From a virus: a DNA stretch of 64,000 bases. The position numbers and the translations under genes are program-made. Positions 2,750 to 37,706 of this stretch are shown piece by piece. The notes under the pieces are model-generated. The model worked only from the letters and a program-made list of their open reading frames with translations. It searched no databases and was not told the origin of the DNA. The stretch's first letter is position 1; each line of letters starts with the position of its first letter. Location: the IMG/VR virus record IMGVR_UViG_3300014059_000004. One strand, 5' to 3'.

Positions 2750-3307
2750 ATGGAACTGTCGAAGGCTCGTAGCATCGGAGAATCCTTGCTCAAGCTCATC
2801 GGACCAGCAGTGAAGCGAGCAGAGATCGCTGGGTCAGTCCGCCGTGAGAAGGAGACAGTCAAAGACATCGAGCTTGTCATCATTGTTGATGATTACGAGG
2901 CTCTCTTTGGTGCTCTTCGGTCGCGAGGAAAGTTCATCAAGCCTGGCGTTCCTGACATCATCGAATGGCCACCAAAGGTTGGTGCGAAGTACCTGCGCCT
3001 CCTCCTTGAAGAAGGAATCAAGCTAGATGTCTTCGTGGCAACGCCGGCGAACTGGGGCTCGTTGCTGTGCATGAGAACTGGGTCTGCAACTGCACCAAAC
3101 GGTAACGTCCACGGTGGGTTTGTTCCGAAGATGTTTTCGATTTGGAAGAAAGTTTCTGGCGGCGGCCGGATGCTGGGTTGCTTGCCAACGCGGCCAGATG
3201 GCACACAAGTTCACGTTCCTGAGGAGCGAGATTTCTTCGATTTGCTCGGTGTCCAGTGGGTTGAACCGCGCGATCGAACAAGTTCAAAGGCAGTCAAAGC
3301 AAAATGA
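2750..3307 (+). CDS. minimal DNA polymerase X (Pol beta-like nucleotidyltransferase)
   Basis: GSVRREKETVKDIELVI nucleotidyltransferase motif (GS...D-x-D) and C-terminal FFDLLGVQWVEPRDR resembling Pol beta C-terminus (FDYIQWKYREPKDR); 185 aa like ASFV Pol X. Confidence 0.72.
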   Translation: MELSKARSIGESLLKLIGPAVKRAEIAGSVRREKETVKDIELVIIVDDYEALFGALRSRGKFIKPGVPDIIEWPPKVGAKYLRLLLEEGIKLDVFVATPANWGSLLCMRTGSATAPNGNVHGGFVPKMFSIWKKVSGGGRMLGCLPTRPDGTQVHVPEERDFFDLLGVQWVEPRDRTSSKAVKAK

Positions 3308-7055: not shown

Positions 7056-8266
7056 AATTTTTCGTACCTGCAGTTGGTTACCAGATCGTCCTCGCTGCTG
7101 ATTGGAACTTCTCGCTCTACCTCGAAGACAGGAACGACACGTGCCTGAAGCTCTTGGCGCCCAAAGTCTACGAGGATGTGAAAAGCAACTGGCACAATCG
7201 TTCCAAATCCGGAAAGGGCTGGCCGCTCGATTACAAGCACGAGTCTGTGATGCTGCCGAAAGGCACGAAGCTGGAGATCGATCGAGTTTACGTTCGAACT
7301 GCGAACAAGGCCAAGGAAGGATCTGACAACTACGATTCCATCACGTTCAAAGTTGTTGGCGAAAAATCGAAAGTTCGCTTCTGGGCGAAGCTCGAAGACG
7401 TCAACAACATCGAGTACGAGCTCCCAGACAACTTCACTGCAGGCAAAGAAGCTGCAGTGAAGGCAGCGAAGGCACCCAAGAAGCTGACGCTTAAGGATAT
7501 CACAACAACCATCGATGGCGCTTTGCACCTGTACGATCGGGAAGACAAGCGCAATTACCCGAAATGGTTGACAGCAACTGCGCAGGGTGAGATCAAGCAC
7601 CTGCTTGATACGTTCAATTCATTTGCAATTCCAATCAAGCGTGCCGAGAGTGAAGCTCGCCGGCAAGTTGCTGAGCGCGATGCAAAGTTGCGCTATGCAC
7701 AAGGTAACTTTCCTGCGTACTTGAAGACCACGATCAAATCTGTGGAAGAGTACGTGAAGTGGGACTTGCAGCACCGCAACTATAATCTCAGGTTGCAACC
7801 TGAGATTGATGACAAAGATCTCCGTGAAGATGCGGCTCGAGTCATCGCGTACCATCTTCTTAGTTACTACTGCGTTAGCAAGGTGCAGTTCAAGCGCAGA
7901 GCTGATGGTTCTGCAGTTCGAACGTGGTCATTTAAGGTCAGAGATAATGTTCCCACGCCGCCGAGCATCCATGCCATCGACGTGTCAAAGTATTGGTTGC
8001 AAGTCGCGGTCGATCCTACCGAGACAGAGATCGTCAGCTTCTCGTGCGGTGTGGACGGGAATCCTCCGCCAGTCGCTTTAGACCGCTCGGAGTTATCACG
8101 AGAAGCCCACGAATTAATTCGAGATAAACAAATGGTTAGTACTGTGGTATCATTTATCAGTAAATCGTGGGCTAACATCGACTGGGACAGCGTGTACTGC
8201 TGGCTCGTCGTTCCATGCACAGGAAGGATTCAAAGCAGATGTCGTTCATCAGATGGCCAGAGATAG
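7052..8266 (+). CDS. hypothetical protein (404 aa)
   Basis: GTGA coupling to upstream stop; long clean ORF. Confidence 0.55.
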   Translation: MKFFVPAVGYQIVLAADWNFSLYLEDRNDTCLKLLAPKVYEDVKSNWHNRSKSGKGWPLDYKHESVMLPKGTKLEIDRVYVRTANKAKEGSDNYDSITFKVVGEKSKVRFWAKLEDVNNIEYELPDNFTAGKEAAVKAAKAPKKLTLKDITTTIDGALHLYDREDKRNYPKWLTATAQGEIKHLLDTFNSFAIPIKRAESEARRQVAERDAKLRYAQGNFPAYLKTTIKSVEEYVKWDLQHRNYNLRLQPEIDDKDLREDAARVIAYHLLSYYCVSKVQFKRRADGSAVRTWSFKVRDNVPTPPSIHAIDVSKYWLQVAVDPTETEIVSFSCGVDGNPPPVALDRSELSREAHELIRDKQMVSTVVSFISKSWANIDWDSVYCWLVVPCTGRIQSRCRSSDGQR

Positions 8267-9237
8267 TCAACTTCCACACGCTTCGGAAGAACATCAGGAA
8301 CTACCCCCACATCGTGGGAGACGGTAACGTCACCTTCAGGCCCAAGGTGAAGCTTCATGGTGCCAATGCAGGGATCCAAGTCAGGCGAAAGGGCATCACA
8401 GTCCAGACCCGCGAGCAGTTCATCGCTCCTGGCAACGATTTTGCTGGGTTGGCAGCATGGGCTCACAGAGAATCGCAATCGTTTGTAGACACCGGTGCAG
8501 CAGTCGATAAAGTGATCTTCGGTGAATGGTGCGGACCTGGCATCAACAAGGGAACAGCATTGACGCAAGTCAGCAAGAAGTTCTTTGCTGTCTTTGCCGC
8601 TGCGACCCTAGACGCATTTGACAACGAAGAGTCGAAGCTGATCGTTGAACCTGACGAACTCGAGATGCTGGTCGCGGGCGTCCATGATGCGTACGTGCTT
8701 CCTTGGCACTCGAAGTCGTTCAACGTTAACATGTTGCACCATGCAAAAGATCTGCAACCCATCGTTGACAAGATAAACAGCGACGTTGCTGAAGTTGAGA
8801 GATGCGATCCCTGGGTAAAGTCCACGTTCCAAGTTGAGGGCGTCGGTGAAGGTCTCGTTTACTACCCACTGCCAACGACGGTGAAGACGTTCACGAACTT
8901 GGCTTTCAAGGCAAAGGGTGAAGCTCACAAGATCTTGACGCACGGAAAACCAGCGCAAGTTGATCCGGAAGTTGCCGCATCTGCAGCTGAGTTTGTCGCT
9001 CTCGTTCTGTCTGAAGCTCGCCTCGTGCAAGGTGTCGCCACGCTCGGTGGTGAATATCATCCGCGACTCACGGGACCGTTCTTGGCTTGGGTGTGCAAGG
9101 ACGTCTTCAAGGAAGCTCAAGCTGAGCTTGAAGCCAGCGGGTTGGAGTGGCACGACGTTCGTGGTCAGCTGCAAGCTGCTGCGCGTGCATGGTACTTGAA
9201 GAAGTGCAACGAAACGTTACGTCATGGTACAATCTAA
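8239..9237 (+). CDS. ATP-dependent RNA ligase, Rnl2-like (nick-sealing nucleotidyltransferase)
   Basis: Motif I KLHGAN (KxHGxN of Rnl2-type ligases), motif V-like AFKAKGEAHK; RBS aggaagga 10 nt before ATG 8239. Confidence 0.62.
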   Translation: MSFIRWPEIVNFHTLRKNIRNYPHIVGDGNVTFRPKVKLHGANAGIQVRRKGITVQTREQFIAPGNDFAGLAAWAHRESQSFVDTGAAVDKVIFGEWCGPGINKGTALTQVSKKFFAVFAAATLDAFDNEESKLIVEPDELEMLVAGVHDAYVLPWHSKSFNVNMLHHAKDLQPIVDKINSDVAEVERCDPWVKSTFQVEGVGEGLVYYPLPTTVKTFTNLAFKAKGEAHKILTHGKPAQVDPEVAASAAEFVALVLSEARLVQGVATLGGEYHPRLTGPFLAWVCKDVFKEAQAELEASGLEWHDVRGQLQAAARAWYLKKCNETLRHGTI

Positions 9238-9412: not shown

Positions 9413-10096
9413 ATGAGATATGTTTATCTGATTCAGAATCTAATCAACGGGAAAGTATATGTTGGGCAAACGAAAAATTTTTCCAATAGAAAAGCAGGAC
9501 ATTTGTATTCTGCCAAGAAAGGTGATCTTCGACCTCTTTACTGTTCCATCCGAAAATATGGTCATGAAAATTTCGAGTTTCGAATTCTAGAAGAGTGTGA
9601 TGATCATGAGTGTGATGATCGTGAAATTTATTGGATATCACATTATGATTCGTTTAACATCGATAGAGGTTATAATCTGACGCGTGGAGGAGAAGGATCT
9701 ACGGGTTGCGTTGTTTCGATAGAAACTCGTCAGAAAATGAGTGATAAACACCGCGGAAAACCTAAGTCACTAGAACATCGCCAGGCAATTTCTCGTGCAA
9801 GACTTGGTTGGGAAGGTTTGCGTGGCGCTAGAAATCCAAATTTCGGAACACATCTTACTGATCAAGCACGTAAAAAAATTAGTGAGCATGCTAAACTACG
9901 GATTGGAGTGAAAAATCCAAATTGTTCATTGACTGAAGATGATGTTAAGGGAATCAAGTATCAATTGTCAATTGGAACTAGAGTTTGTGACATTGTGAAA
10001 CTGTTCAATATTAGTCGTTCTCAAGTAAATCGGATTAAGCTTAACAAGCAATGGAAGCACGTAACAATAGAATTATGCGTCCTCATATTTGTCTAG
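9413..10096 (+). CDS. GIY-YIG homing endonuclease with NUMOD3-type DNA-binding repeats
   Basis: YVYLIQNLINGKVYVGQT...R...H GIY-YIG core; repeated ETRQKMSDKHRGK / EHRQAISRARLG / DQARKKISEHAK NUMOD-like motifs; strongly AT-rich versus flanks. Confidence 0.85.
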   Translation: MRYVYLIQNLINGKVYVGQTKNFSNRKAGHLYSAKKGDLRPLYCSIRKYGHENFEFRILEECDDHECDDREIYWISHYDSFNIDRGYNLTRGGEGSTGCVVSIETRQKMSDKHRGKPKSLEHRQAISRARLGWEGLRGARNPNFGTHLTDQARKKISEHAKLRIGVKNPNCSLTEDDVKGIKYQLSIGTRVCDIVKLFNISRSQVNRIKLNKQWKHVTIELCVLIFV

Positions 10097-11244
10097 TAGA
10101 TGGGATGAATTTTTTGCACCGGTCTAGAACTGGCTGGACAGCTGGTCCAGCTCCTGTAGTTTTTAATTTTTTTCGTAACATACGAGCACTAGTAGAAAAA
10201 CTTGATATCAGTCGCTTGTATTTCGTGCTTGAAGGCCATCCGCAAGCTCGTCACGATATCTTGCCGCAATACAAAGCGAACCGCATCGTAGAAGCCGGCA
10301 CCAAAGAGCACGATGAGATGGTGAAGTTCTTCAGCCAGGTCGACGAGATAGTCGGGTTGCTGGCTGGTTCTTTTCCGTTCTCTGTCGTGCGTCATCCTCA
10401 CCACGAGTGCGATGACACAATCTACAACCTCATCAAGCGTGGCACACGAGCCGTGAAGTGGACAGTTGTATCGAACGATTCTGACTTCACGCAGCTCCTA
10501 GATGAATTTGAGGGCGTCAGCATCTACAACCCCATGAAGAAGGCTTACGTTGAGCAAGCTCCCGCTGATTACGTTACATGGAAGGCTCTTCGTGGAGATC
10601 CAACAGACAACATCCCAAAGATCATTACGGATGGTGCTGCTACGGCGCTGATGGACGACCCGGATGCGTTGAAGGAGTTCTTCAATGATCCTGCTAATAA
10701 AGAAGCCTTTCGAAAGAACTATTCGCTCATCAAGTTCACCACGTGGTCTGACGAAGAGGCGCATGGCATGACGTCTTCGCAACCGACCAAAGATTGGGCG
10801 CCAGTCCGCTCTACGTTCGAGAAGTACGGCTTTAAGTCGCTTCTGAAAGATGAAGCTTGGGGAAAGTTCACTGCGACGTTTGATCACCTTTGGGGTGAAT
10901 ACTTACTCGTTATGAAGATCAAGCTTCGCGAGCTTAAGTCGATGATCAGAACGATTCTCACCGAGGGAATGACATCATTTGATGGCTGGAACGTCGGTGA
11001 CTGGGTGAAGTTGCCAGGCGGTGCTGTCGTTCAGATCGCTTCGTTTGAAGATACGCCGTCGACTGGTGGTAGCTACGTCACGTGCCGGACAACTGACGGC
11101 CGAGCTCAACGCGCTGACTACATGTTTGCAGACGCAGTGAAGCCAACGCCAGAAGAGATCAAGTCTTGGTCGAAGCACAAGAAATCTTCTGCTCGGCGCG
11201 AAGCTGATTACTACGCGAAGCACGGAACTCGCGGCGAATTCTGA
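10075..11244 (+). CDS. 5'-3' exonuclease / flap endonuclease (FEN, T4 RNase H / Pol I 5'-nuclease family)
   Basis: DGMNFLHR, QYKANR, ECDDTI, VVSNDSDFTQL motifs; first about 45 codons AT-rich like the endonuclease, remainder backbone-like. Confidence 0.8.
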   Translation: MRPHICLVDGMNFLHRSRTGWTAGPAPVVFNFFRNIRALVEKLDISRLYFVLEGHPQARHDILPQYKANRIVEAGTKEHDEMVKFFSQVDEIVGLLAGSFPFSVVRHPHHECDDTIYNLIKRGTRAVKWTVVSNDSDFTQLLDEFEGVSIYNPMKKAYVEQAPADYVTWKALRGDPTDNIPKIITDGAATALMDDPDALKEFFNDPANKEAFRKNYSLIKFTTWSDEEAHGMTSSQPTKDWAPVRSTFEKYGFKSLLKDEAWGKFTATFDHLWGEYLLVMKIKLRELKSMIRTILTEGMTSFDGWNVGDWVKLPGGAVVQIASFEDTPSTGGSYVTCRTTDGRAQRADYMFADAVKPTPEEIKSWSKHKKSSARREADYYAKHGTRGEF

Positions 11245-12614: not shown

Positions 12615-13402
12615 GCGGCTGGAAAGCCGACCACGAAGATCCAGATCATGACGCAAGCAAGAACTACGTCTTTGCGGATAATATCTCTAAGTTCGCAGCT
12701 GCATCACCAGCTAGCGCTCCGCAAGAGGTCGACGGCGTCCTAGATCTGCGCCAGTGGTGCTCACCGGTCGAGGATCAGGGAGCTATAGGAAGTTGTACGG
12801 GCAACGGTGTCGTTGGGGCTCTCGAGTTTCTTCAGATCCGCAACGGCAAACCTTTCGTAGACCTGTCTAGGATGTTCGTCTACTACAATGCTCGTTTGAT
12901 GTCACGAATGCAAGATCGCGATGAGGGTGCTTACATTCACATGGCGTTCGGAACGCTGTCATCGTTGGGAACTTGTGCAGAAGAAAAGTGGCCTTATGAC
13001 ACCAGCAAGGTCTTCATTCGACCGTCTTGGGGTTCTTACAGGGACGCTTACGTCAACAAAATTGACAGCTACTATTCTATCGGTGGATCTGGTCAAGCGC
13101 AGAAAAACTACATCATCTCTGCGCTGCAAGCAAGCCATCCGATCGTCTTTGGCATGACTGTCGATAAAGATTACATGGCGTACCGCGGCGGTCCACCCGT
13201 TGCGATGCCAAAGTCCGTTAGGGCCGGCGCTGGAGGTCACTGCCAAGTGATCGTAGGCTACGATCTTGGAAGAGAGCTGTGGTTGGTTCGCAACTCTTGG
13301 GGAACTTGGTGGGGAGATGATGGTTACGCTTGGGTGCCGTTTAAGTACCTAGACGAAAGCTCTGCAAACAGCTTTTGGGTACCGTTTTTGGAGGGTACAT
13401 GA
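12596..13402 (+). CDS. papain-like cysteine peptidase (C1 family)
   Basis: DLRQWCSPVEDQGAIGSC (Q/C catalytic region), HCQVIVGYD (His), NSWGTWWGDDGY (Asn/Trp). Confidence 0.8.
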   Translation: MYVPKLGGWKADHEDPDHDASKNYVFADNISKFAAASPASAPQEVDGVLDLRQWCSPVEDQGAIGSCTGNGVVGALEFLQIRNGKPFVDLSRMFVYYNARLMSRMQDRDEGAYIHMAFGTLSSLGTCAEEKWPYDTSKVFIRPSWGSYRDAYVNKIDSYYSIGGSGQAQKNYIISALQASHPIVFGMTVDKDYMAYRGGPPVAMPKSVRAGAGGHCQVIVGYDLGRELWLVRNSWGTWWGDDGYAWVPFKYLDESSANSFWVPFLEGT

Positions 13403-13729: not shown

Positions 13730-14104
13730 ATGAAAAAATTGGGCGCAGTATCTATCCTTCTCATTACGTTGATTATTTCTGGGTGCCCTCGTGGGTCCAA
13801 CGTAACACCTCAACCGCCAGTTGTGACCGATACGGGTGACTGCCAGGCTGCATGTGATCGTCTCAACAGCTTGGGTTGCGAAGAGGGCCGTGATATCGAC
13901 ATGAAGAGGTTGTGCGCTGACACTGGTGATTGTGACTTGGGTCATGGTTGCGTAGCGAACCACTGCGTGGCAACGTGCAGCGTGTTCTGCCGTGATACGC
14001 AAGCAGCAGGCGTTTGGCTCGCTCCGTCTTGCGTCAAGAACATAACGAGCTGCGATCAGATCGAATCATGTCCACTTCCAGAACCAAAGAAGTTAAGCTT
14101 CTGA
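13730..14104 (+). CDS. Cys-rich lipoprotein
   Basis: Signal peptide with lipobox LIISGC; 14 Cys. Confidence 0.55.
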   Translation: MKKLGAVSILLITLIISGCPRGSNVTPQPPVVTDTGDCQAACDRLNSLGCEEGRDIDMKRLCADTGDCDLGHGCVANHCVATCSVFCRDTQAAGVWLAPSCVKNITSCDQIESCPLPEPKKLSF

Positions 14105-14577
14105 AGCAGCTCATCCGTGAGATGTTGACAGATCCTCGACCGCCGATAACAAACGTCGAAGTGGGTGGTTCGTTGGCAAATGACGAAGAAGACGAGACGC
14201 TCGCAGCTTTGAATGCCCCGCGAGCTGCATGCGTTCTTGTTAGGAACCCAAACGGAAAGATCTTGGCAGTCTCTAGGAAAGATGATCCAAACGATTTTGG
14301 ATTGCCGGGTGGGAAAGTGGATCCTGGTGAGGTTGAGGTTGAAGCCGCTGCAAGAGAGCTTGAAGAAGAGACTGGTTACACTGCTGTAAATCTAACAAAA
14401 GTGTTCTCGCAGAAAGATGATGCTGGTTACTTCGTGACGACTTACTCTTGCTCAGTCATGGGTAACGTTGACACTGATGAATCTGGTGTGGTGAAGTGGG
14501 TTGAACCCGCTGTTCTCCTGCAAGGATCTTTCAGCGACTACAATCGAAAGCTGTTCAAGAGGGTGGGAATCCTATGA
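14068..14577 (+). CDS. Nudix hydrolase
   Basis: Nudix box GLPGGKVDPGEVEVEAAARELEEETG. Confidence 0.75.
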   Translation: MSTSRTKEVKLLKQLIREMLTDPRPPITNVEVGGSLANDEEDETLAALNAPRAACVLVRNPNGKILAVSRKDDPNDFGLPGGKVDPGEVEVEAAARELEEETGYTAVNLTKVFSQKDDAGYFVTTYSCSVMGNVDTDESGVVKWVEPAVLLQGSFSDYNRKLFKRVGIL

Positions 14578-15248
14578 AGCAACACTTGAAGTCGTACATA
14601 TCACACCTCATTGAAGCAGCAGTGGGCGGAGATCAAGCTATAGATGCTGGGCTAGCTCTTTATAGGGGACAGCGAGAAGGTAAGATTTACTACGTTCTTT
14701 ACGAGCCCAAGACTCTAGCGTCTGTCATGCAAGAACCGGGTTTCTGGAGCATGCGATTCTCCAAACCTCTCGATGAATTTATCTACGGTTTCATCGAAGC
14801 CATCCCACACTCTGACGAGTGCAATGACGCTATCGAAGTTCATCGATCTGCAGCGTCTAAAGGTTACGGTCCGCTCATGTACGATATTGTCATGAGCGAC
14901 GGCGACGGTGGCTTGATGCCAGACAGGGTATCGACAAATTCTTCTGCCGAGAAGTTGTGGCAATATTACTCTTCGAAGCGCAGCGACGTTGACAAGAAAC
15001 CGTTTGATGATCGTGATGATCCAAAGACACCAGAAGAATGCGATGACTGCGAGCTTGTGAAAGATCCAAACAAGGTATTGAACTACTCTTACGACGGGCC
15101 AGGACAAAGCGCGGCAAAATCAAGCTTGATCCAAAGGCATGGTGAAGTTGCTCAGCAGCTGGCAAAGCACGACGTGAAGCAATCATCGCTAGAAAATGTT
15201 CTGTACCAACTTGGTAACACGTACTTTGACAAGAAGTACGGCAGATGA
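14574..15248 (+). CDS. hypothetical protein
   Basis: ATGA coupling to Nudix stop; 224 aa. Confidence 0.5.
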   Translation: MKQHLKSYISHLIEAAVGGDQAIDAGLALYRGQREGKIYYVLYEPKTLASVMQEPGFWSMRFSKPLDEFIYGFIEAIPHSDECNDAIEVHRSAASKGYGPLMYDIVMSDGDGGLMPDRVSTNSSAEKLWQYYSSKRSDVDKKPFDDRDDPKTPEECDDCELVKDPNKVLNYSYDGPGQSAAKSSLIQRHGEVAQQLAKHDVKQSSLENVLYQLGNTYFDKKYGR

Positions 15249-15272: not shown

Positions 15273-15719
15273 ATGTTGGCAAGTGGTATGATACCGCTAG
15301 CAAGTCCTCACAGTCTCATACAAGAATCTCTATGGCCCAATGAATGGCTCGTCCTCGTCAGCTGCATCATGCTGAACCGGACGAAGAGAACGCAGGTAGA
15401 AAAGATCCTACCTGAATTCATGTCTCGTTGGTCAACGCCTGAGAAGTACTTGGAGAGCTCCCCAGCTGAAGTCGCTGACTTGATCCGGTCGCTTGGATTC
15501 AAGAATCGTCGCGAAGCCACGATCAGGTCAATGACAAAGGCTTACGTGAGCAAATCTTGGTCAGATGCCCGGGAGCTGCCCGGTATCGGTGAGTACGGTT
15601 GGAGATCATGGAAGATGTTCTTCCAATGCGATGTGGGTAGCTACCGCCCGTCAGACGGTGCGTTGGGCATATACTACGACTGGATAAAGAAACATGAGCA
15701 ACGCAAAGAAGATCGCTGA
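15273..15719 (+). CDS. HhH-GPD DNA glycosylase, MBD4 catalytic-domain-like (mismatch T/U glycosylase family)
   Basis: LIQESLWPNEWLVLVSCIMLNRT...SPAEVADLIRSLGFKNRREATI...LPGIGEYGWRSWKMF...YYDWIKKHE parallels MBD4 glycosylase domain. Confidence 0.68.
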   Translation: MLASGMIPLASPHSLIQESLWPNEWLVLVSCIMLNRTKRTQVEKILPEFMSRWSTPEKYLESSPAEVADLIRSLGFKNRREATIRSMTKAYVSKSWSDARELPGIGEYGWRSWKMFFQCDVGSYRPSDGALGIYYDWIKKHEQRKEDR

Positions 15720-16023
15720 ACGCGTTAAAGAGAAAGCGCCGAAGGCTCCACGAAAGAAGAGAGTGAAGATCGATCCAAAGACAGTGCCTGCGATCGCTGA
15801 CGGCGTGCTGCTAGCACCAGTTGGTAGCAAGATCTTGGTGACTCGGTTGCGCCATGCTCGTCCTCACACTTCATCTTGCGAGATTCACAAGATCGATGAA
15901 GATGGAACGATCCACGCGTGGGACGAGACGCTCAACCAGTGGTTTCTCTTCAAGGCATCAGACAATGTCGATGTCAGGTTCTACAATGCCGCGGCTGCTG
16001 GTGCTGCTGCGCTGGAGGGATGA
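15694..16023 (+). CDS. small basic protein
   Basis: 109 aa ORF ending adjacent to next ATG. Confidence 0.45.
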   Translation: MSNAKKIAERVKEKAPKAPRKKRVKIDPKTVPAIADGVLLAPVGSKILVTRLRHARPHTSSCEIHKIDEDGTIHAWDETLNQWFLFKASDNVDVRFYNAAAAGAAALEG

Positions 16024-16839
16024 ATGCCCGAGGGTGTTGAAGTCACGTTGAGCGTCGAAGAGATCAACAACCTGTTCAGCGGTGAGATCATTCGTGCCGT
16101 TCAGCTGCACAACACTGGTCGTTACTCTTCGAAAGAGCCCGCTGGTTACCAAAATTTCGCTTCTGCTGTTCGTGATGGCTACATGATGGAAGCAGCTCGC
16201 GTAAAGGGAAAGTTCTCATGGTGGACGTTCAAGAAAGATCTTGAGCCCGATTGGTACATGATGTGCACCTACGGGATGACGGGAAAGTGGACGACGCGGC
16301 CCATGGCTGGGCACGCCGTCATGTCAATCATGTCTGATGAGTTGACAACGACGTTCATTGACCAGCGTCGATTCGGGACGTTGAGCTTCACGTCTTCTGC
16401 TGAAGCGCTAGCTTCAAAGCTGAAGTCAATAGGTCCTGACATGCTTAACGCACCACCGGATGATGAAGAATTCATCGAGCGCATGATGTTCAAGAGCAAT
16501 CGAACGATCGCTGAAGCTCTGATGGACCAAAGCTGCGTCTCTGGCGTCGGCAATTACTTGAAGTGTGAATCTTTGTATGCTGCGAAGATATCACCGCATC
16601 GTCCAGTTTCGTCGCTAACCCACGAAGACTTTGCTGACCTACGATCAGCTATCATAATGATGATGAACCTATCGTACGAGCTCGGTGGGGCTTACTCAGT
16701 GGGTCCGGATGGCACATCATGGATATCAGACAGATTTTCAGTGTACAATCAAGTCACTGATCCTCATGGATTCCCAGTAGAAAAAAAAGCGACCGCTGAC
16801 GGTCGAACAACTTACTGGTGTCCAAAAAGACAGAAGTAG
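16024..16839 (+). CDS. Fpg/Nei family DNA glycosylase / AP lyase
   Basis: N-terminal MPEGVEV (catalytic Pro2-Glu3), DQRRFG, H2TH region LMDQSCVSGVGNYLKCESLYAAKISP, C-terminal YWCPKRQ zinc-finger-like. Confidence 0.8.
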   Translation: MPEGVEVTLSVEEINNLFSGEIIRAVQLHNTGRYSSKEPAGYQNFASAVRDGYMMEAARVKGKFSWWTFKKDLEPDWYMMCTYGMTGKWTTRPMAGHAVMSIMSDELTTTFIDQRRFGTLSFTSSAEALASKLKSIGPDMLNAPPDDEEFIERMMFKSNRTIAEALMDQSCVSGVGNYLKCESLYAAKISPHRPVSSLTHEDFADLRSAIIMMMNLSYELGGAYSVGPDGTSWISDRFSVYNQVTDPHGFPVEKKATADGRTTYWCPKRQK

Positions 16840-16842: not shown

Positions 16843-17175
16843 ATGGAAAAAGTAGCACCGCGCTATTCTCCTGACATGGTCAGAGAGAACGTTCAGCGCA
16901 ACATTGAAAGACTATTCGCTGGGTACAGCGCTGGAAGACCGGCGAACTGGTCATGTGATGTCAGAACTAAAGAAGTGATAACGACTGCTAACTGGCTCGG
17001 TGAAGAGCTCCAGCGCATTGGCCTAGACGATGCTGGAGCCAAAGTTCAGAACGCGCAGTTCAACAGAAGGGTTCGTTCAGAAGAAGATTTGTGGTCAATT
17101 GCGTCCCAAATTTTGAACGATGCGCTGGATGGCAACGTTGACAGGAACAGGAGACCTCATCGACGATGGAGCTAA
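16843..17175 (+). CDS. hypothetical protein
   Basis: 110 aa ORF. Confidence 0.45.
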   Translation: MEKVAPRYSPDMVRENVQRNIERLFAGYSAGRPANWSCDVRTKEVITTANWLGEELQRIGLDDAGAKVQNAQFNRRVRSEEDLWSIASQILNDALDGNVDRNRRPHRRWS

Positions 17176-17414
17176 GCCCAGTAAGCGAATTCGTTGCACG
17201 TTTTACGTTGAAGGTGACGCAATTGATAGAAACAGAATTGTGTTACGTTTCTTGGGATACGTTTGTTCAGAACGACAGCGGCACACGTGGTGTAATTCTG
17301 AAAAAGAACACGATGTGCATCCTCACGCACTTGGGACCAGATTACGCAAAAGTCATCGTTCCTTCGTTGGGTGATTCTTTCTTCGTGCTTCGAACCTTCA
17401 TAAGGCACCTATGA
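17166..17414 (+). CDS. hypothetical small protein
   Basis: Coupled at both ends (overlaps upstream stop; TGA overlaps 17411 ATG). Confidence 0.4.
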   Translation: MELSPVSEFVARFTLKVTQLIETELCYVSWDTFVQNDSGTRGVILKKNTMCILTHLGPDYAKVIVPSLGDSFFVLRTFIRHL

Positions 17415-18328
17415 TGAGACGTAAGAACAGCAACATGCTGCTGCGCATTGCGCAAGCAGATGCATTGGCGTTGGGCATCGAATTCATCGATAAAGAGAAG
17501 CATGGCGAGCTTTTTGAAGCTGTTGGCTCTATGAATCGTTACGTTCAGCACCCAACGTACGAGCTGATGAAACCGGGCTGGTACTCAGATGATACCCAGC
17601 AGAGCATTGCGATCGCAGAGTTGCTGTGCACCAGCGAATCACCCAGCGCCGTTGATTTTGTTGGCAAATTTTGGGAAGTTCATGCAAGAGATCCACGCGA
17701 TGGTTACAGCAGAGCGATGCAAGAGCTACTAGAGTCTTCGAAGAACGGTGATGAGCTGAAGCTGAAGCTTCAACCAAATTCCGACAAGAACGGTGCAGCG
17801 ATGCGCTCGGTTCCCATAGGCGTCATCAAAGATCCAGATGCCGTCGTTCGCTACGCTGGGTTGCAAGCAGCTACGACGCATGCCACGTGGGGTGGCATCA
17901 ACTCCTCGATCGCTGTTGCATTGATGTCGCATTATGCCCTCTACGATCGTCGAGATTTTAATCACATGCTAGGATGGTGTAGCCGTTACCTAGATTCTTT
18001 TGATTATTTCTCGAAGCCCTGGGAGGGCCCTGTGAAGGCTCGACCGAAGCAGCCGGGGGATCGTGGCCTCGGTTGGAACACGGCTTGGGCTGTTCATACG
18101 TTGCTTGTCGAAGAAAAATCGCTAGCGGGTATCATGTCTCGAGTTGCGAGCTGGGGTGGTGACACAGACTCTGTCGCTGCGATCGCATGGGGCATTGCAT
18201 CTGCACGCTACTCTGACGAAGTGTTGCCGAGCTTCCTTGAAACCGACCTTGAAGCTAGCCGTGATGGTAACTACGGTGTACAGTTCCTCAAGGATCTTGG
18301 TGAGCAGCTGATGTGCAAGTACGCTTGA
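17411..18328 (+). CDS. ADP-ribosylglycohydrolase (ARH/DraG family)
   Basis: ADALALG, YSDDTQ, NGAAMR, TTHATWGG, SWGGDTDSVAAIAWGIA motifs. Confidence 0.75.
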   Translation: MMRRKNSNMLLRIAQADALALGIEFIDKEKHGELFEAVGSMNRYVQHPTYELMKPGWYSDDTQQSIAIAELLCTSESPSAVDFVGKFWEVHARDPRDGYSRAMQELLESSKNGDELKLKLQPNSDKNGAAMRSVPIGVIKDPDAVVRYAGLQAATTHATWGGINSSIAVALMSHYALYDRRDFNHMLGWCSRYLDSFDYFSKPWEGPVKARPKQPGDRGLGWNTAWAVHTLLVEEKSLAGIMSRVASWGGDTDSVAAIAWGIASARYSDEVLPSFLETDLEASRDGNYGVQFLKDLGEQLMCKYA

Positions 18329-18332: not shown

Positions 18333-20225
18333 GTGGCTTGTAAAATAGCTGATCTGCAGGGTACATTTCAACTTATGGCACCAAGCACCAAAGCCAAGAA
18401 ATCTGTCATCGATAGCATCACGACGTTCCACAGCACTTTGAAAGTGAAGGTGTCAGATCTAAGGAACATCCAAGAAGAGCACGGCGACATGTGTTGCACG
18501 TTCATCGACGATGTTGTTCATGAGTATGACAATTGCGGCGAGGCAAAAGAGTGCAGCCAGTGCAAGGCGATGAACGATAATGACGCTCGTTTCTGCAAGC
18601 GGTGCGCTTACCCACAAGCAGGTTACGAGTTCATCAGCATCCCAAAGATCTATTGGTCAGATGTTGAAAACACTGCAAAGAATTCTTTTGAGAACGTAGT
18701 CATCAAGAAGCTTGTACCCCTGACAACGGGTCGAGCATTCTTCATCATGACGTACGTCAATCCAGATTATGAGCACGTTACAAAAGTCGTGGGGGCGGCG
18801 ATCGTAGACGGGAAGTACGAAGAGTGCGACGTGACTTTCACGTCGAAAGCAAACAAGCGAGTTCGTTACAACGTTGAACTTTTAGCACCACGAGACAAAA
18901 TGACTGAAAAGAACAAGACGCTAGTGACGCAAGTTAGAGATTTCTTCAACGTGAGCAAGGTGAAGCAAGTCATCCACGTTGGAACTGACATCTTTCAAGC
19001 ATCAACGCCTTTCTTGGAAGATCCCACCTGGTGGAACGGTTTGAAGAGCAGCTTCTCGATCTCCAAAGTGCTCATCGAGCAGTTTGAAGTGTGGGGAGAT
19101 GATTTCTTCTCTAGCGATGAGTGGTCTGCACCTTACAGCAGGGACTTCAACTCTACGATCATCAAGGTCGTCAGTCGCTATCCTTACGAGAACATTCGCA
19201 CCAACGATGATGCTACGATCATTCGCATGATCGATGCCGATGGCATCAAGATGGGTTACACGATGAACACCCGTCTCAACGTTCCTGGCAACATCTACGT
19301 TGATACTGCGAAGCTGAAAGAGGCTCAAGCTCTCATCAAGAAGATCTTGTGGGAATCGTTGAAAGATTCAAACCTCGTCATGAGGCAGAACAAGCGCGTT
19401 GGAACGTCTGACGATGATTCTAGGATCGTGTTTGAATCTGACGATGCCTTTCATCCCCTTGCATCTGAGAGAGCAACTTCGTACGCAGCATACTTGAAGC
19501 GGTGCATCGACGCTGACGTGCCGCGGTCAGTGATGCTGTACGGTCCGCCGGGGACTGGAAAGTCTACGATGGCTCGAACCATCGTGGAGAACCTTGGCAT
19601 GCGCAGCTTCCGAATTCGCGTTGAGGATGTTGCTAACCTTGAGAGCTCTACGCTCTTTGAGGCTATCACGATCTTTGAACCCGATGCAATCATCTTGGAT
19701 GACTTTGACAGAGCGCATGCGCAGGCGCAGCTGCTCGAGACGCTCGAGTTCTTCCAGAGGCACGTGAAGCTTGTCATCGCAACTGTCAACAATCGTAACA
19801 GTCTTGATGAGGCAATCCTTCGCCCTGGTCGCTTCGATGAGATGTTGTTTGTGAAGACAATGGACGGTGATGTTGTCAGGTCGATCCTTGGAACTTACGC
19901 TGATGAGGCTTACGAGCTCGTCAAGAATTGGCCCATCGCCTTCATCCAAGAGTACGTGAAGAGGCGTCGGTTCATGTCTGCCGCTGAAGCATCTGAGTCT
20001 ACGATCGAGCTCTCGAAGCGTGTTGCTCGCCTCGAGAAGTACGAGGATGATCCAGCGCCTGAAGTGACAACACTTGATGATCACTCTATGAAGACTGATC
20101 CGCCCGATAACGGTCCTATCACTGAAGATCTTGAAGGTGAAGAGAACGAAGAAGGAGGCGGCCCCGAGGGCGACGCCCCTTTTTGTCCACCGCTAGAAAC
20201 CTTAGTGATCTTACTACGAAGCTAG
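18333..20225 (+). CDS. AAA+ ATPase with N-terminal Cys-cluster (zinc-ribbon-like) region
   Basis: Walker A LYGPPGTGKST, Walker B AIILDDFD, SRH ILRPGRFDE; CSQCKAMNDNDARFCKRC; acidic C-terminus. Confidence 0.75.
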   Translation: MACKIADLQGTFQLMAPSTKAKKSVIDSITTFHSTLKVKVSDLRNIQEEHGDMCCTFIDDVVHEYDNCGEAKECSQCKAMNDNDARFCKRCAYPQAGYEFISIPKIYWSDVENTAKNSFENVVIKKLVPLTTGRAFFIMTYVNPDYEHVTKVVGAAIVDGKYEECDVTFTSKANKRVRYNVELLAPRDKMTEKNKTLVTQVRDFFNVSKVKQVIHVGTDIFQASTPFLEDPTWWNGLKSSFSISKVLIEQFEVWGDDFFSSDEWSAPYSRDFNSTIIKVVSRYPYENIRTNDDATIIRMIDADGIKMGYTMNTRLNVPGNIYVDTAKLKEAQALIKKILWESLKDSNLVMRQNKRVGTSDDDSRIVFESDDAFHPLASERATSYAAYLKRCIDADVPRSVMLYGPPGTGKSTMARTIVENLGMRSFRIRVEDVANLESSTLFEAITIFEPDAIILDDFDRAHAQAQLLETLEFFQRHVKLVIATVNNRNSLDEAILRPGRFDEMLFVKTMDGDVVRSILGTYADEAYELVKNWPIAFIQEYVKRRRFMSAAEASESTIELSKRVARLEKYEDDPAPEVTTLDDHSMKTDPPDNGPITEDLEGEENEEGGGPEGDAPFCPPLETLVILLRS

Positions 20226-21410: not shown

Positions 21411-21734
21411 ATGAGAATTAAGATGGCAACTAGAACACCTTCTAAGGGATCACTCACGGACGGTACTGAATTCCAGCTGCACAAATCTCAATTGATGTTG
21501 TTCAGCGGGATCATGAGCAAGGTGATTGATTTCACTGAACACAAGCTTCTGAAGTGCATTGATTCGGTTGATGACGTGCAGCAGAAAGTAGTGTTGAAAG
21601 ATCTCCTTGACAAGTACAGAAAAGGCACAGTTGCGGTATCATGGCGAAAAGGCCGACCGGTTCAACTACCAGTGACTAAGGAAAAGTTACTTCTGAACAC
21701 TGCGTCAGATTGTGGTAAAATGAAGGTACCATGA
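21411..21734 (+). CDS. hypothetical protein upstream of chaperonin
   Basis: 107 aa; no GroES mobile-loop signature. Confidence 0.45.
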   Translation: MRIKMATRTPSKGSLTDGTEFQLHKSQLMLFSGIMSKVIDFTEHKLLKCIDSVDDVQQKVVLKDLLDKYRKGTVAVSWRKGRPVQLPVTKEKLLLNTASDCGKMKVP

Positions 21735-37705: not shown

Positions 37706-37706
37706 C

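Follow-up and report, generated by a model that had tools for sequence, protein, structure and literature searches.

We identified an MBD4-family DNA glycosylase that consists of the catalytic domain alone as the product of a phage gene in a 64,000-nt stretch of viral DNA (the whole of which is called the window below), and we found that this gene is linked, across divergent viral genomes, with genes for later steps of base excision repair (BER). By analogy with characterized members of the family, we consider it likely that the protein is an active, monofunctional glycosylase that performs the first step of phage BER of deaminated cytosine. In the reviews consulted, MBD4 appears solely as a eukaryotic (human) glycosylase with a connection to CpG methylation, and no description of a viral MBD4-type subfamily was found in the searchable literature; the MBD4 family was probably not previously known from phages, and the glycosylase chemistry itself is probably ordinary.

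A Stand-Alone MBD4-Family Glycosylase

The gene and its parts, in coordinates of the window, are as follows.

15273..15719, + strand: stand-alone MBD4-family HhH-GPD DNA glycosylase; ATG start; 148 aa, the stop codon being included in the open reading frame
15321-15323, + strand: codon of Q17
15378-15380, + strand: codon of R36
15576-15620, + strand: HhH hairpin, residues 102-116, sequence LPGIGEYGWRSWKMF
15594-15596, + strand: codon of Y108
15654-15656, + strand: codon of the catalytic D128

The open reading frame encodes a 148-aa protein, and all motifs that the sequence-only reading had named were confirmed in the translation: LNRT (34-37), SPAEVA (63-68), the hairpin sequence (102-116), and YYDWI (134-138). 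A second ATG at 15291 (M7, "MIP...") is possibly the true start, giving 142 aa, and corresponds to the start position of many homologs; this alternative leaves the glycosylase domain unaffected. The proposal that the protein follows MBD4 nearly motif for motif held for LNRT, the HhH hairpin, and YYDW, which stood in register, but not for SPAEVA: human "PSAEVA" lay ~10 residues upstream of it in the ungapped alignment, by which the resemblance is coincidental. HhH-GPD was the sole Pfam domain of the 148-aa protein (41.3 bits vs. a cut-off of 26.2), with no methyl-CpG-binding domain.

Comparison with proteins of known structure placed this protein close to MBD4. In a phmmer search against the PDB, 15 chains of human or mouse MBD4 were matched with E values of 1.6e-19 to 4.8e-18 in a single ungapped alignment (query residues 8-143), and the families that followed were Mig (1KEA, 9e-5) and EndoIII (1e-2); as judged from the alignment, the similarity to MBD4 is far above chance. 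The AF2 model consisted of eight helices (pLDDT 89.7, pTM 0.85), and when it was compared with the PDB by Foldseek the best 16 matches were all MBD4 (TM 0.82-0.93, rmsd 1.3-2.3 Å), followed by 1KEA (TMq 0.60). The C-terminal Cys-X6-Cys-X2-Cys-X5-Cys loop of EndoIII, MutY, and Mig was not found in the phage protein, which has no C-terminal extension; because it contains two cysteines in total (C31 and C119) and ends just past the catalytic helix, it has no Fe-S cluster. No NCBIfam model reached its cut-off (nth, 27.6 bits vs. 211.7; mutY, 16.7 bits vs. 286.5), no PHROGs family was matched, PADLOC gave a weak match (23 bits, E 1e-5) to its "Type II nicking endonuclease" model, and a BFVD fold search with the model returned one baculovirus match and zero phage matches. 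Thus, the best sequence match, the family profile, the fold, and the invariant residues described below bore out the earlier suggestion of an MBD4-type glycosylase in a phage, and the protein is a member of the MBD4 glycosylase family that comprises the catalytic domain only.

Conservation of Catalytic and Base-Reading Residues

Residue conservation was counted over 62 relatives of the viral subfamily and 105 long, eukaryote-type relatives. The catalytic Asp of the HhH-GPD motif, which the sequence-only reading had singled out as the residue to look for on alignment, is present, since D128 aligned with human D560 (mouse D534); Asp occupied this position in 62/62 viral-subfamily and 105/105 long relatives. 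A loss of the catalytic Asp through the change of D543 to R111 was considered and ruled out, since the catalytic residue is D560, the counterpart of D128, both in the structural papers and when the human protein is counted back from its C-terminus. Y108 (human Y540), Q17 (human Q449, preceded in the phage protein by I16), and L34 and N35 (human L466 and N467) were each conserved in all 62 viral-subfamily relatives. In MBD4, D560 is catalytic and D534N is dead, Y540 contacts O2 and Y514F is nearly dead, L466 stacks on the base, and Q449 reads O2/N3, with Q449A being inactive; Gln449 and the preceding backbone amide together read O2/N3/O4 of U or T, excluding cytosines, and the opposite G is read through backbone carbonyls (PMC3479182, PMC3458566). 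Because a Tyr stands where bifunctional HhH enzymes have the Schiff-base Lys, the phage glycosylase should be monofunctional.

Several other positions were variable or altered. The stretch L34-N35-R36-T37 is identical to human LNRT, with R36 corresponding to the Arg finger R468; this position was Cys in 43/62 viral-subfamily relatives and Arg, Lys, or Gln in 28, 26, and 19 of the 105 eukaryote-type proteins, and the Arg finger is therefore not strictly defining for the MBD4 family. The wedge residue L508 was replaced by Phe (F76) in 59/62 relatives and was Leu in 96/105 long relatives; F76, a bulkier hydrophobic residue, is probably equivalent to the Leu wedge. Both G471 and K562 were changed in 61/62 viral-subfamily relatives, the former to Arg (R39) and the latter to Ala (A130). 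As K562 was Met in 54/105 eukaryote-type relatives, only the Gly-to-Arg change is strongly specific to the viral subfamily. Further changes relative to human MBD4 were L511 to Arg and D543 to Arg. In MBD4, the Cα of G471 lies 4.0 Å from the thymine methyl, and K562 stacks on the base and contacts 5-hydroxymethyluracil (5hmU), with K536A cutting activity 5-10 fold (PMC3479182, PMC3458566). The changes at G471 and K562, both on the C5 side, suggest that the substrate preference, especially for T, may differ from that of MBD4.

A Repair Gene Cluster Conserved across Viral Genomes

The following genes of the window, all on the + strand, surround the glycosylase gene.

2750..3307, + strand: minimal family-X DNA polymerase (Pol X) candidate, 185 aa, palm and thumb only; Pfam DNA_pol_B_thumb 1.6e-5
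8215..9237, + strand: ligase-family nucleotidyltransferase, candidate nick sealer; Pfam RNA_ligase PF09414 1.5e-12
10051..11244, + strand: 5'-3' exonuclease/flap endonuclease (FEN); phrog_107 1.2e-22, Pfam 5_3_exonuc_N
14014..14577, + strand: NUDIX hydrolase; Pfam NUDIX 3e-20, with weak NCBIfam MutT-type matches, all below cut-off
14574..15248, + strand: orf224, between the NUDIX gene and the glycosylase gene
15694..16023, + strand: orf109, a small basic protein of 109 aa with a Lys-rich N-terminal tail, an all-beta core of ~60 aa, and an invariant WD-T motif
16024..16839, + strand: Fpg/Nei-family bifunctional glycosylase/AP lyase (Nei), 271 aa; Pfam H2TH and Fapy_DNA_glyco, phrog_21295 3e-32
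16843..17175, + strand: orf110, directly 3' of Nei
18333..20225, + strand: AAA+ ATPase, 630 aa; PHROG and Pfam AAA
20453..21385, + strand: UvdE-type UV-damage endonuclease; phrog_8420 3e-52, Pfam UvdE

Gene neighborhoods were compared with single-sequence tblastn probes within 10 kb on either side of the glycosylase gene in 81 related loci, which are partly truncated and phylogenetically related. The Nei gene lay on the same strand as the glycosylase gene in all 40 loci that have it, within 1.5 kb in 24 of these, and its start overlapped the glycosylase stop by 8-28 nt in the divergent loci L057, L059, L060, L069, L070, L081, and L082, so that the two genes are translationally coupled in at least seven loci. 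These results strengthened the idea of a glycosylase operon, which had been put forward from the letters of this window; the accompanying statement that the Fpg/Nei gene directly follows the glycosylase gene was incorrect, as the conserved 109-aa orf109 (15694..16023) intervenes. The phage Nei retains the N-terminal MPEG-E, the KGKF Lys, and the RTTYW Arg, and its full-length PDB matches (3A45, 3A42, 3VK7, and 4NRW; E about 1e-34) are of the NEIL1/Mimivirus Nei1 type; we take these four entries to be Mimivirus Nei1. With one Cys only in its C-terminal finger, the protein should be zincless, and a zincless finger has been described in mvNei1 and hNeil1 (PMC7139703).

The orf109 gene shares 26 nt with the 3' end of the glycosylase gene and runs up to the start of Nei; wherever tblastn matched it (15/15 loci), it came immediately after the glycosylase gene and had the same orientation (its alignment also took in L004 and L006). 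It had no match in Pfam, PHROG, NCBIfam, PADLOC, or the PDB; a profile search of the PDB gave chance-level matches, a word-indexed homolog search returned one near-identical protein only, and single-sequence AF2 modeled five strands with a pLDDT of 53. That orf109 is a DNA-binding accessory protein is only a guess. On the other side, orf224 had no match in Pfam, PHROG, or PADLOC, and tblastn matched it in two other loci, near-identical L012 and L092 (32%, opposite strand). The NUDIX gene was upstream and on the same strand in 26/26 related loci, orf110 (no PHROGs family) was downstream in 10 related loci, and the AAA+ ATPase gene lay 3' of the glycosylase/Nei pair on the same strand in 19/19 loci.

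Genes for later repair steps were also frequent nearby. FEN was within 10 kb in 44/81 loci, and a PolX-like gene in 14 loci; over 44 non-redundant clusters, FEN was counted in 27, Nei in 19, NUDIX in 18, and PolX-like genes in 10, and thymidylate-synthase-like and dCMP deaminase genes in one each. The Pol X candidate matched residues 164-264 of the Thermus PolX palm in the PDB (E 2.7e-6), with NCBIfam PolX below threshold, and the UvdE protein was ~31% identical to the annotated UvdE of jumbo phages. A classical Xth or Nfo AP endonuclease was not found in the 64-kb window, and apart from the nicking-endonuclease model, PADLOC matched the cluster with generic AAA models only. Taken together, the linkage of the glycosylase gene with later-step BER genes is conserved across divergent viral genomes.

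Distribution of the Viral Subfamily

The stand-alone subfamily, with proteins of 137-160 aa, was present on at least 100 IMG/VR contigs, and a homolog was found in the cultured cyanophage S-TIM54. With a cut-off of E<=1e-30, a family-wide profile search returned 418 representatives, most of them long and with the glycosylase domain at their C-terminal end, and the viral profile matched such eukaryote-type proteins at about 1e-40. These long relatives carry N-terminal extensions of 250-1100 aa, some with zf-4CXXC_R1; most have Gly, Leu, and Met or Lys at the three signature positions, and a protist-like subset has the viral Arg/Ala pocket. When fusion partners were sought in the long proteins with this viral pocket signature, low-complexity N-termini only were found. 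In a strict, pattern-based scan of cellular genome contigs, a glycosylase relative was present in one MAG only, which is suggestive of an absence of the subfamily from cellular genomes. A megablast search with 13-19 kb of the window as query found nothing among 50,697 phage records.

Proposed Role in Phage Base Excision Repair

We infer an active enzyme with an MBD4-like substrate range that acts on the phage's own DNA and passes its product to Nei. The glycosylase would bind duplex DNA through residues 102-108 of the HhH hairpin and through two loops; F76 would wedge into the helix, and a uracil-type pyrimidine mispaired with G would be flipped out, its O2/N3/O4 edge being read by Q17, Y108, and the I16 backbone, such that U, T, and 5-substituted U would be accepted and cytosines excluded. 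D128 would then cut the N-glycosidic bond, leaving an abasic site, and R36 would occupy the space that the base has vacated. Either the presumably co-transcribed Nei-type glycosylase/AP lyase would take over this site or UvdE would incise it; filling of the gap would fall to the mini Pol X, trimming to the flap nuclease, and sealing to a ligase, making up a phage-encoded BER pathway. The RNA-ligase Pfam type of the ligase-family gene counts against the sealing step. MBD4 is strongly product-inhibited: it acts in single-turnover mode and needs about 4 h to turn over (PMC3479182, PMC3458566), which makes a coupled processor of AP sites plausible; the hand-off to Nei is proposed from this slow product release and from the gene linkage. 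Chiefly, the pathway would undo the deamination of cytosines in phage DNA (U:G, possibly T:G pairs), beside handling oxidative and UV damage.

A variant of this proposal, to which, jointly with the gene transfer mentioned next, we give a small share of probability, is that the G471-to-Arg and K562-to-Ala changes change what the C5 side of the pocket admits. In that case, the enzyme might be a dedicated U:G glycosylase that rejects thymine, or a selector of a specific 5-substituted uracil, and the glycosylase, orf109, and Nei might form a three-gene module that undoes enzymatic deamination of C to U, or of modified C to modified U, as large-phage DNA might suffer, for example, from host deaminase-based immunity. 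Under the same small share falls the possibility that the closeness of viral and eukaryotic MBD4/MBD4L proteins (about 1e-40, with the protist-like clade) reflects gene transfer between large phages and eukaryotes.

Alternative Explanations

The sequence-only reading had offered protection of a 5-methylcytosine (5mC)-rich genome, processing of a hypermodified base, or attack on host DNA as roles, and none of these found support in this genome, where neither modification genes nor CpG depletion were seen. A guardian of a 5mC- or otherwise C5-modified phage genome would remove T from the T:G pairs left by 5mC deamination, as Vsr does in E. coli, and removal of T or U opposite G at methylated CpG is the textbook role of MBD4; we nevertheless regard this as improbable here. 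Among the non-shadow ORFs of at least 150 aa in the window, there was no gene like those for thymidylate synthase or dCMP hydroxymethylase, dCMP deaminase, or C5-methyltransferase, nor were such genes found in the 10 kb further upstream, about a third of the genome being out of view. The CpG odds ratio of the window was 1.06, which indicates no deamination footprint, and the Arg in place of G471, beside the thymine methyl position, speaks, if anything, against a thymine-optimized pocket. The window showed no avoidance of short palindromes, which is compatible with modified DNA and not evidence for it. In favor of such a role, phage Xp12, in which all cytosines are 5mC (PMC9206674, PMC7653180), has a protein of MBD4 type (E 5e-14 to MBD4 vs. 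5e-4 to EndoIII); the gene for it lies directly upstream of genes for a HAD hydrolase, a "thymidylate synthase", a dCMP deaminase, and DHFR, and the same arrangement was found in a related Janthinobacterium phage. However, with Lys kept at the K562 position and only 29% identity, the Xp12 protein belongs to a different branch, and when the Xp12 genes were used as probes over the 81 related loci, a thymidylate-synthase-like gene and a dCMP deaminase gene were each found once within 10 kb, and HAD and DHFR genes in no case.

An offensive or counter-defensive enzyme, which would repair the C-to-U editing of host DNA-deaminase immunity or attack the uracil- or 5hmU-containing DNA of hosts or competing phages, is somewhat less probable still. 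The remodeled C5 side of the pocket (R39, A130) is kept within the viral subfamily, which suggests a substrate preference distinct from that of eukaryotic MBD4; excision of 5hmU and 5-halo-uracils is known for MBD4 and plant MBD4L (PMC6728418 for MBD4L), and the PADLOC nicking-endonuclease match points the same way. On the other hand, the conserved neighbors Nei, Pol X, FEN, and UvdE complete BER and are not the nucleases or inhibitors of host-takeover modules, PADLOC otherwise gave generic AAA matches only, the data at hand identified no host deaminase, and MBD4-type enzymes act on G mismatches rather than on U:A or 5hmU:A pairs, of which a genome of U- or 5hmU-DNA would be full. It is very unlikely that the protein is an inert MBD4 lookalike, a DNA-binding or lesion-sensing HhH protein: the K562-to-Ala change (K536A being 5-10 fold slower), the unconserved Arg finger, and the Xp12-group homolog whose active site was left unassigned in the published analysis (PMC9206674) would fit it, but the equivalents of D560, Y540, and Q449, mutations of which abolish MBD4 activity, were conserved in 62/62 proteins that are only 36-58% identical, which argues for selection on catalysis. 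Least probable of all is that the contig comes from a eukaryote or a virus of eukaryotes or results from mis-assembly, the MBD4 homolog then being a eukaryotic gene fragment. This would accommodate the Mimivirus-type best PDB match of Nei, a major-vault-protein-like ORF and a papain-like protease in the window, the baculovirus protein as the sole BFVD structural match of the glycosylase, and a window in which no capsid or terminase gene was found. Against it stand a 64-kb stretch that is 92% coding and holds ~131 genes, all without introns, overlapping or abutting junctions in 49/97 same-strand pairs (25 of the ATGA type), the use of GTG and TTG starts, SD-like motifs enriched 2.4-fold, PHROG matches to phage GroEL, UvdE, exonuclease, MoxR ATPase, and a DnaB/UvsX-like ATPase, a Seg-like GIY-YIG/NUMOD3 homing endonuclease in the window, a 99% identical IMG/VR viral contig, the repetition of the gene order on independent assemblies, the homolog in cultured S-TIM54, and a T4 gp39-like topoisomerase gene, identified by reading its sequence, directly after the gene in related loci. 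The earlier attribution to a phage is thus supported indirectly, by the viral contig, the PHROG matches, the Seg-like endonuclease, and the prokaryotic gene layout, and the host, judged by genome organization, is prokaryotic.

Phage Xp12 is also of interest in its own right, because the 5mC idea gains an independent lead from it: its MBD4-type gene, like those of its relatives, has gone unrecognized so far and adjoins nucleotide-metabolism genes that are candidates for 5mC synthesis, and the published analysis of an Xp12-group homolog assigned no active site (PMC9206674).

Significance

These results show that large uncultured phages commonly carry the MBD4 catalytic domain as a gene of its own, on at least 100 viral contigs, and the proposed pathway would extend to bacteriophages the virus-encoded BER so far described for giant viruses and African swine fever virus (ASFV). 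A protein of 142-148 aa is small and easily expressed, and its natural G471R/K562A variants suit the study of C5 gating; the Xp12 case makes testable how an all-5mC genome handles deamination to T. Gene transfer, if true, would be relevant to how the MBD4 catalytic domain originated. If the phage enzyme is a plain U:G/T:G glycosylase, it provides a useful annotation and an evolutionary curiosity without a new mechanism.

Comparison with Known Systems

The closest known counterpart is the C-terminal domain of mammalian MBD4 (MED1; PDB 4DK9, 4E9G, 4EVV, 6VJW, and 1NGN), which has the same fold over the full length at ~31% identity without gaps and shares the catalytic Asp, the HhH Tyr, the Gln/backbone reader, the Leu platform, the LNRT Arg finger, and the lack of an Fe-S cluster. 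Unlike mammalian MBD4, the phage protein lacks the methyl-CpG-binding domain and the linker at the N-terminus, and its gene shares an operon-like cluster with that of Nei. Plant MBD4L (Arabidopsis AT3G07930), an MBD-less eukaryotic MBD4-like protein, resembles the phage protein in that the MBD is absent and the MBD4-specific catalytic residues are kept; however, the phage proteins are short and stand alone, whereas plant MBD4L and other eukaryotic types have long N-terminal extensions. For AtMBD4L, U and 5-substituted uracils are better substrates than T (PMC6728418), and this preference is a plausible model for the phage enzyme.

More distant relatives share fewer features. Mig (Mth TDG, 1KEA), which removes T or U opposite G, EndoIII (Nth), and MutY have the HhH-GPD superfamily, the HhH hairpin, and the catalytic Asp in common with the phage protein; unlike it they carry a C-terminal [4Fe-4S] loop, and the matches to them were weaker (E 9e-5 to 1e-2) and covered part of those larger proteins (TMq 0.5-0.6). 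The Xp12-group proteins (Xp12 QNN97216.1, AXL1 gp65, and Donnerlittchen USN14433.1), annotated as hypothetical, "ENDO3c", or "endonuclease III", are likewise stand-alone and of MBD4 type, with the catalytic Asp, Tyr, and Gln aligned. Their identity to the phage glycosylase is 26-29%; they have Lys at K562, Trp at G471, and Leu at the Arg-finger position, and they are encoded by siphoviruses of ~58-64 kb in which the gene is near those for "thymidylate synthase", dCMP deaminase, and DHFR and not near Nei.

The cluster as a whole recalls Mimivirus Nei1/Nei2 and the BER of ASFV, which are likewise virus-borne glycosylases with a minimal Pol X, in viruses that infect eukaryotes. ASFV encodes a Pol X of 174 aa, comparable with the 185-aa candidate here, together with an AP endonuclease and a ligase; to our knowledge, eukaryotic viruses of the Mimivirus or ASFV type have no MBD4-type enzyme.

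MBD4-Family Assignment of the Viral Glycosylase

The open reading frame (ORF) that a sequence-only reading had placed at 15273-15719 is present on the + strand, with an ATG start and a product of 148 aa; the true start is possibly the second ATG, at 15291, which is the starting point of many homologs ("MIP..."). The product matched Pfam HhH-GPD with 41.3 bits against a cut-off of 26.2. Searched with phmmer against every PDB sequence, it matched 15 different chains of the MBD4 glycosylase domain with E values from 1.6e-19 to 4.8e-18, each in one ungapped alignment covering query residues 8-143, and the next families were Mig (1KEA; 9e-5), EndoIII (1e-2), and MutY (8e-2). Because the MBD4 matches were strong and those to the other HhH-GPD families far weaker, the proposed likeness to MBD4 is real and specific. 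The four motifs quoted in its favor, LNRT and YYDWI among them, all lie within the translation, but SPAEVA and human PSAEVA are not in register, and the resemblance to MBD4 there is coincidental. The protein has only two cysteines and stops just past the catalytic helix, which indicates that the Fe-S cluster loop is absent.

An AlphaFold2 model computed from the 62-sequence family alignment (mean pLDDT 89.7, pTM 0.85) contained eight helices. The top 16 Foldseek matches in the PDB were all MBD4 glycosylase domains, aligned over the full length with TM scores of 0.82-0.93, rmsd of 1.3-2.3 Å, and approximately 30% identity, after which the scores fell sharply to Mig, EndoIII, and MutY (TMq 0.5-0.6, with only part of those larger proteins covered). 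Among the predicted viral structures of BFVD, no phage entry matched the model; the sole good match was U5KBB0 of Clostera anastomosis granulovirus A, a baculovirus; this HhH-GPD protein has 245 aa and a fold of the MBD4 type (TMq 0.88, 28% identity). The glycosylase matched no PHROGs v4 family, no NCBIfam model reached its cut-off, and our literature search found no paper describing a viral stand-alone MBD4 subfamily. Judged by sequence, the protein genuinely belongs to the MBD4 catalytic family, as part of a distinct, mainly viral, stand-alone subfamily.

Conserved Catalytic Residues and a Divergent Pocket

Human catalytic Asp560 (mouse D534), located by counting from the human C-terminus and from structural papers, lies within "HPEDHKL", which aligned to the viral "RPSDGAL"; thus, the catalytic Asp is present on alignment as D128. 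A candidate lost catalytic Asp, D543 (R111 in the HhH hairpin of the viral protein), was ruled out, because D543 is not the catalytic residue.

Conservation was counted in the 62-sequence family alignment, with positions named after human MBD4 and mutants after the mouse enzyme except Q449A. D560 is catalytic and D534N is inactive; Y540 contacts O2 and stands in for the Schiff-base Lys of bifunctional HhH enzymes, and Y514F is nearly inactive; Q449 reads O2/N3, and Q449A is inactive; and L466 serves as a stacking platform (PMC3479182, PMC3458566). The equivalents D128, Y108, Q17, and L34 are each kept in 62/62 sequences, as is N35 (N467). The Arg finger R468 corresponds to R36 in the window protein and to Cys in 43/62 relatives, and the wedge L508 is replaced by F76 (59/62). 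In MBD4, the Cα of G471 lies 4.0 Å from the thymine C5 methyl, and K562 stacks on the flipped base and contacts the 5hmU hydroxyl, K536A being 5-10 fold slower (PMC3479182, PMC3458566). In the viral family these two positions are R39 and A130, each in 61/62 sequences. As far as the alignment indicates, the residues for breaking the glycosidic bond and for restriction to uracil-type bases are intact, and on its C5-facing side the pocket differs consistently.

Conserved Linkage with Repair Genes

The glycosylase gene is surrounded by putative repair genes, with the ligase-family, 5'-3' exonuclease (FEN), and Pol X-like genes upstream:

2750-3307, +, Pol X-like protein, 185 aa
8215-9237, ligase-family gene
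10051-11244, 5'-3' exonuclease
12596-13402, +, papain-like Peptidase_C1
14014-14577, NUDIX hydrolase
14574-15248, +, orf224
15273-15719, +, MBD4-type glycosylase
15694-16023, +, orf109
16024-16839, +, Fpg/Nei glycosylase
16843-17175, +, orf110
17411-18328, +, ADP-ribosylglycohydrolase
20453-21385, UvdE
21731-23356, +, full-length GroEL chaperonin

An AAA+ ATPase gene lies between the ADP-ribosylglycohydrolase and UvdE genes. The Fpg/Nei gene had been described as directly following the glycosylase; instead, the 109-aa orf109 intervenes, overlapping the glycosylase gene by 26 nt and abutting Nei.

The best PDB matches of the Nei protein were 3A42, 3A45, 3VK7, and 4NRW (E ~1e-34, full length), which we take to be Mimivirus Nei1, a viral ortholog of NEIL1, whereas it matched bacterial Fpg (1e-13 to 1e-17) and Escherichia coli Nei (6e-9) more weakly. 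The alignment keeps the N-terminal MPEG-E, the KGKF lysine, and the RTTYW arginine, and a single Cys in the C-terminal finger indicates a zincless finger, as known from mvNei1 and hNeil1 (PMC7139703). By these matches, Nei is a second glycosylase of eukaryotic or giant-virus flavor next to the MBD4-type enzyme. The palm of the Pol X-like protein aligned to residues 164-264 of Thermus PolX (E 2.7e-6), and a Pfam Pol beta thumb and no other Pol X part was found; it is a candidate minimal family-X polymerase, reminiscent of the 174-aa Pol X of ASFV.

Conservation of this context was assessed by single-sequence tblastn probes within ±10 kb of the glycosylase in 81 related loci, which are partly truncated and related to one another. 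Nei was found in 40/81 loci, in each case on the glycosylase strand, and 24 of these have it no more than 1.5 kb away. FEN was present in 44/81 loci, NUDIX in 26/81 (upstream in every one), the AAA ATPase in 19/81 (downstream in every one), GroEL in 17/81, orf109 in 15/81 (directly downstream of the glycosylase each time), the Pol X-like gene in 14/81, and UvdE in 8/81; the peptidase and the ADP-ribosylglycohydrolase each recur in 7 related viral loci. When the loci were grouped into 44 clusters at 70% identity, Nei occurred in 19 (12 within 1.5 kb), FEN in 27, NUDIX in 18, orf109 in 12, and the Pol X-like gene in 10. In the most divergent loci, with glycosylases 30-40% identical, Nei adjoins the glycosylase on either side, and the Nei start overlaps the glycosylase stop codon by 8-28 nt in seven loci (L057, L059, L060, L069, L070, L081, and L082). 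The linkage with Nei across many loci therefore supports the proposed glycosylase operon better than one genome could.

The orf109 family combines a Lys-rich tail with an all-beta core of approximately 60 aa carrying an invariant WD-T motif, and no homology to anything characterized was detected with Pfam, PHROGs, NCBIfam, PADLOC, or a profile search of the PDB. For part of the glycosylase family, then, orf109 is a conserved partner. On two related viral contigs (L006:10997-15468 and L004:14963-15196), genes for PrkA, SpoVR, and DUF444, a bacterial stress-kinase trio, lie near the glycosylase, with an eIF-1a/IF1-like gene on one of them.

Distribution of the Subfamily and Its Long Relatives

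Among 5.8 billion proteins, a word-indexed search recovered 76 relatives; almost all of them are metagenomic stand-alone proteins of 137-160 aa with 40-58% identity. At least 100 IMG/VR viral contigs, many of 100-370 kb, encode a relative, and one 81.6-kb contig, with 99% identity, is probably the same virus. A strict pattern-based scan of bacterial and archaeal genomes (one per species, 185,579 species) gave a single match, a Bdellovibrionota MAG contig with gene order largely as on the viral contigs (FEN, papain-like peptidase, NUDIX, glycosylase, orf109).

The family profile was also searched exhaustively with HMMER against 1.84 billion representatives; at E ≤ 1e-3 it matched 6278 proteins, of which 2171 passed ≤ 1e-10 and 418 passed ≤ 1e-30. 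The top 150 matches included 32 short proteins and 105 long ones (250-1100 aa) in which the domain forms the very C-terminal end, which is the architecture of eukaryotic MBD4/MBD4L; among eight long proteins sampled, Pfam HhH-GPD was found in seven, two of which also carry a zf-4CXXC_R1 zinc finger. The short proteins have Arg at G471 (28/32), Phe at L508 (24/32), and Ala at K562 (21/32), whereas the long ones have Gly (85/105), Leu (96/105), and Met or Lys (81/105), respectively; the Arg-finger position varies in both groups alike. The Arg/Ala signature is nevertheless found in 13/105 long proteins, whose low-complexity, Ala/Arg-rich N-termini look protist-like. A clade of long proteins with such N-termini and the viral-type Arg and Ala (P0112, P0157, P0159, P0165, P0179, P0193, P0197, P0236, and P0237) shares the motif "GPRHLCE..CY...YEP"; it may comprise the closest eukaryotic relatives of the phage subfamily, which bears on the direction of gene transfer.

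Probable Phage Origin of the Window

No capsid, portal, or terminase gene was recognized within the 64-kb window, and no close match at the DNA level was found among deposited phages. The window contains approximately 131 genes at 92% coding density; of the 97 junctions between genes on one strand, 49 are overlapping or abutting (25 by ATGA), GTG and TTG occur among the start codons, and SD-like motifs precede 30% of starts against a background of 12%. PHROG matches included phage GroEL, UvdE, exonuclease, MoxR-like ATPase, and DnaB/UvsX-like ATPase, and the best cultured relatives of individual genes were in large or jumbo phages at approximately 30% identity; the cultured cyanophage S-TIM54 has a 33%-identical glycosylase homolog. 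The next gene in some related loci presumably resembles the T4 gp39 topoisomerase, by our reading of the sequence. A homing endonuclease, a tRNA-Leu, and a small-gene array, described below, add to this indirect evidence, all of which is consistent with a phage. A eukaryotic or mis-assembled origin of the contig is contradicted both by this gene organization and by the same synteny on independent assemblies. We thus regard the source, with high but not complete confidence, as a large uncultured phage.

Other features of the window were as follows:

9413-10096, +, Seg-like GIY-YIG/NUMOD3 homing endonuclease, between the ligase-family and exonuclease genes
31335-34079, -, major vault protein (MVP)-like ORF, 913 aa
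approximately 34100-49830, -, small-gene array
55062-55144, -, tRNA-Leu(TAA)

The homing endonuclease occupies the same position on a 101-kb contig (L093) and is missing from two 96%-identical contigs (L001 and L002); a GIY-YIG endonuclease also lies near the glycosylase in L008. The small-gene array, approximately 16 kb with no ORF of 150 aa or more, holds roughly 60 tightly packed ORFs, each 70-125 aa in length and in many cases overlapping start to stop by 4 nt, and resembles the early-gene blocks of large phages. Over the last 12 kb (52000-64000), GC rises from approximately 0.50 to 0.55-0.57, and the proteins at 57952-59283 and 62071-63201, at the right end, had no record in the assembly index. 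The MVP-like ORF has MVP shoulder, vault-repeat, and Band_7 domains (Pfam MVP_shoulder 2e-30; PDB MVP 2.5e-20 across residues 519-843) and no PHROG match; one earlier report describes MVP homologs in phages, a 2023 gut-phage preprint (10.1101/2023.11.10.566534).

5-Methylcytosine and the Xp12 Group

It had been suggested that the enzyme protects a 5-methylcytosine (5mC)-rich genome. For the window phage nothing was found in its favor, and this reading is weakened: no genes for a thymidylate synthase (TS)/dCMP-hydroxymethylase-like protein, dCMP deaminase, or C5-methyltransferase were found in the larger window ORFs (Pfam) or in the 10 kb upstream, the sequence covered being at most about two thirds of the genome; a TS-like gene lies near only 1/81 related loci, and a dCMP deaminase gene likewise; and CpG shows no depletion (rho 1.06). 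Nor is there any avoidance of short palindromes.

Among deposited phages, tblastn found a 26-29% identical protein in Xanthomonas phage Xp12 and its relatives. Every cytosine of Xp12 is 5mC (PMC9206674, PMC7653180), and AXL1 DNA has a similar restriction-resistance pattern (PMC9206674). The Xp12 protein is of the MBD4 type (E 5e-14 to MBD4, 5e-4 to EndoIII), and the genes of this group are annotated as hypothetical, "ENDO3c", or "endonuclease III":

L010:5914-6396 (MT664984.1 46973-47455), Xp12 MBD4-type gene, QNN97216.1
L094:4914-5384, MBD4-type gene of Janthinobacterium phage Donnerlittchen

Directly downstream of the Xp12 gene are genes for a HAD/pyrophosphohydrolase, a "thymidylate synthase", dCMP deaminase, and DHFR, which we infer to synthesize the phage 5mC. 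The AXL1 paper states that the genetic mechanism of the modification is unknown and presents the homolog only as a protein that has an "ENDO3c domain" and lacks a clear active site (PMC9206674). That the Xp12 candidate enzyme corrects T:G mispairs arising from 5mC deamination is an attractive, testable hypothesis.

Proposed Mechanism and Role

By homology with MBD4, a uracil-type base mispaired with G would be flipped into the pocket and hydrogen-bonded at O2, N3, and O4 by Q17, Y108, and the I16 amide; D128 would cleave the glycosidic bond, R36 would fill the vacated gap, and F76 would wedge the opposite strand. Mouse and human MBD4 release the abasic product very slowly, with single-turnover kinetics and a turnover time of approximately 4 h (PMC3458566, PMC3479182). 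The next enzyme would be the translationally coupled, bifunctional Nei with AP-lyase activity, and UvdE, together with the mini Pol X, the flap nuclease, and a ligase, might complete repair. Plant MBD4L, also without an MBD, favors U and 5-substituted uracils over T (PMC6728418). Since the Gly-to-Arg change adjoins the position of the thymine methyl, we speculate that the viral enzymes may likewise favor U:G.

An offensive or counter-defense role fits poorly with neighbors that are repair-completing enzymes, and PADLOC gave, apart from generic AAA matches, only 23 bits against its model "Type II nicking endonuclease". That the protein is inert and merely binds DNA is unlikely, because every residue whose mutation kills MBD4 is kept in 62/62 sequences. 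Rather, the cluster of NUDIX, Nei, UvdE, and the MBD4-type enzyme looks like a set for protecting phage DNA from deamination, oxidation, and UV damage.

These results bring to light a broad viral subfamily that had so far been unrecognized, extend virus-encoded base excision repair to phages, provide natural pocket variants of the MBD4 type, draw attention to the Xp12 enzyme, and raise the question of gene flow between phages and eukaryotes. The protein adds a new member to an established enzyme family, from a host range where it was not expected, and both its subfamily signature and its partnership with Nei are conserved. It does not represent a new type of system, and it probably performs conventional chemistry.
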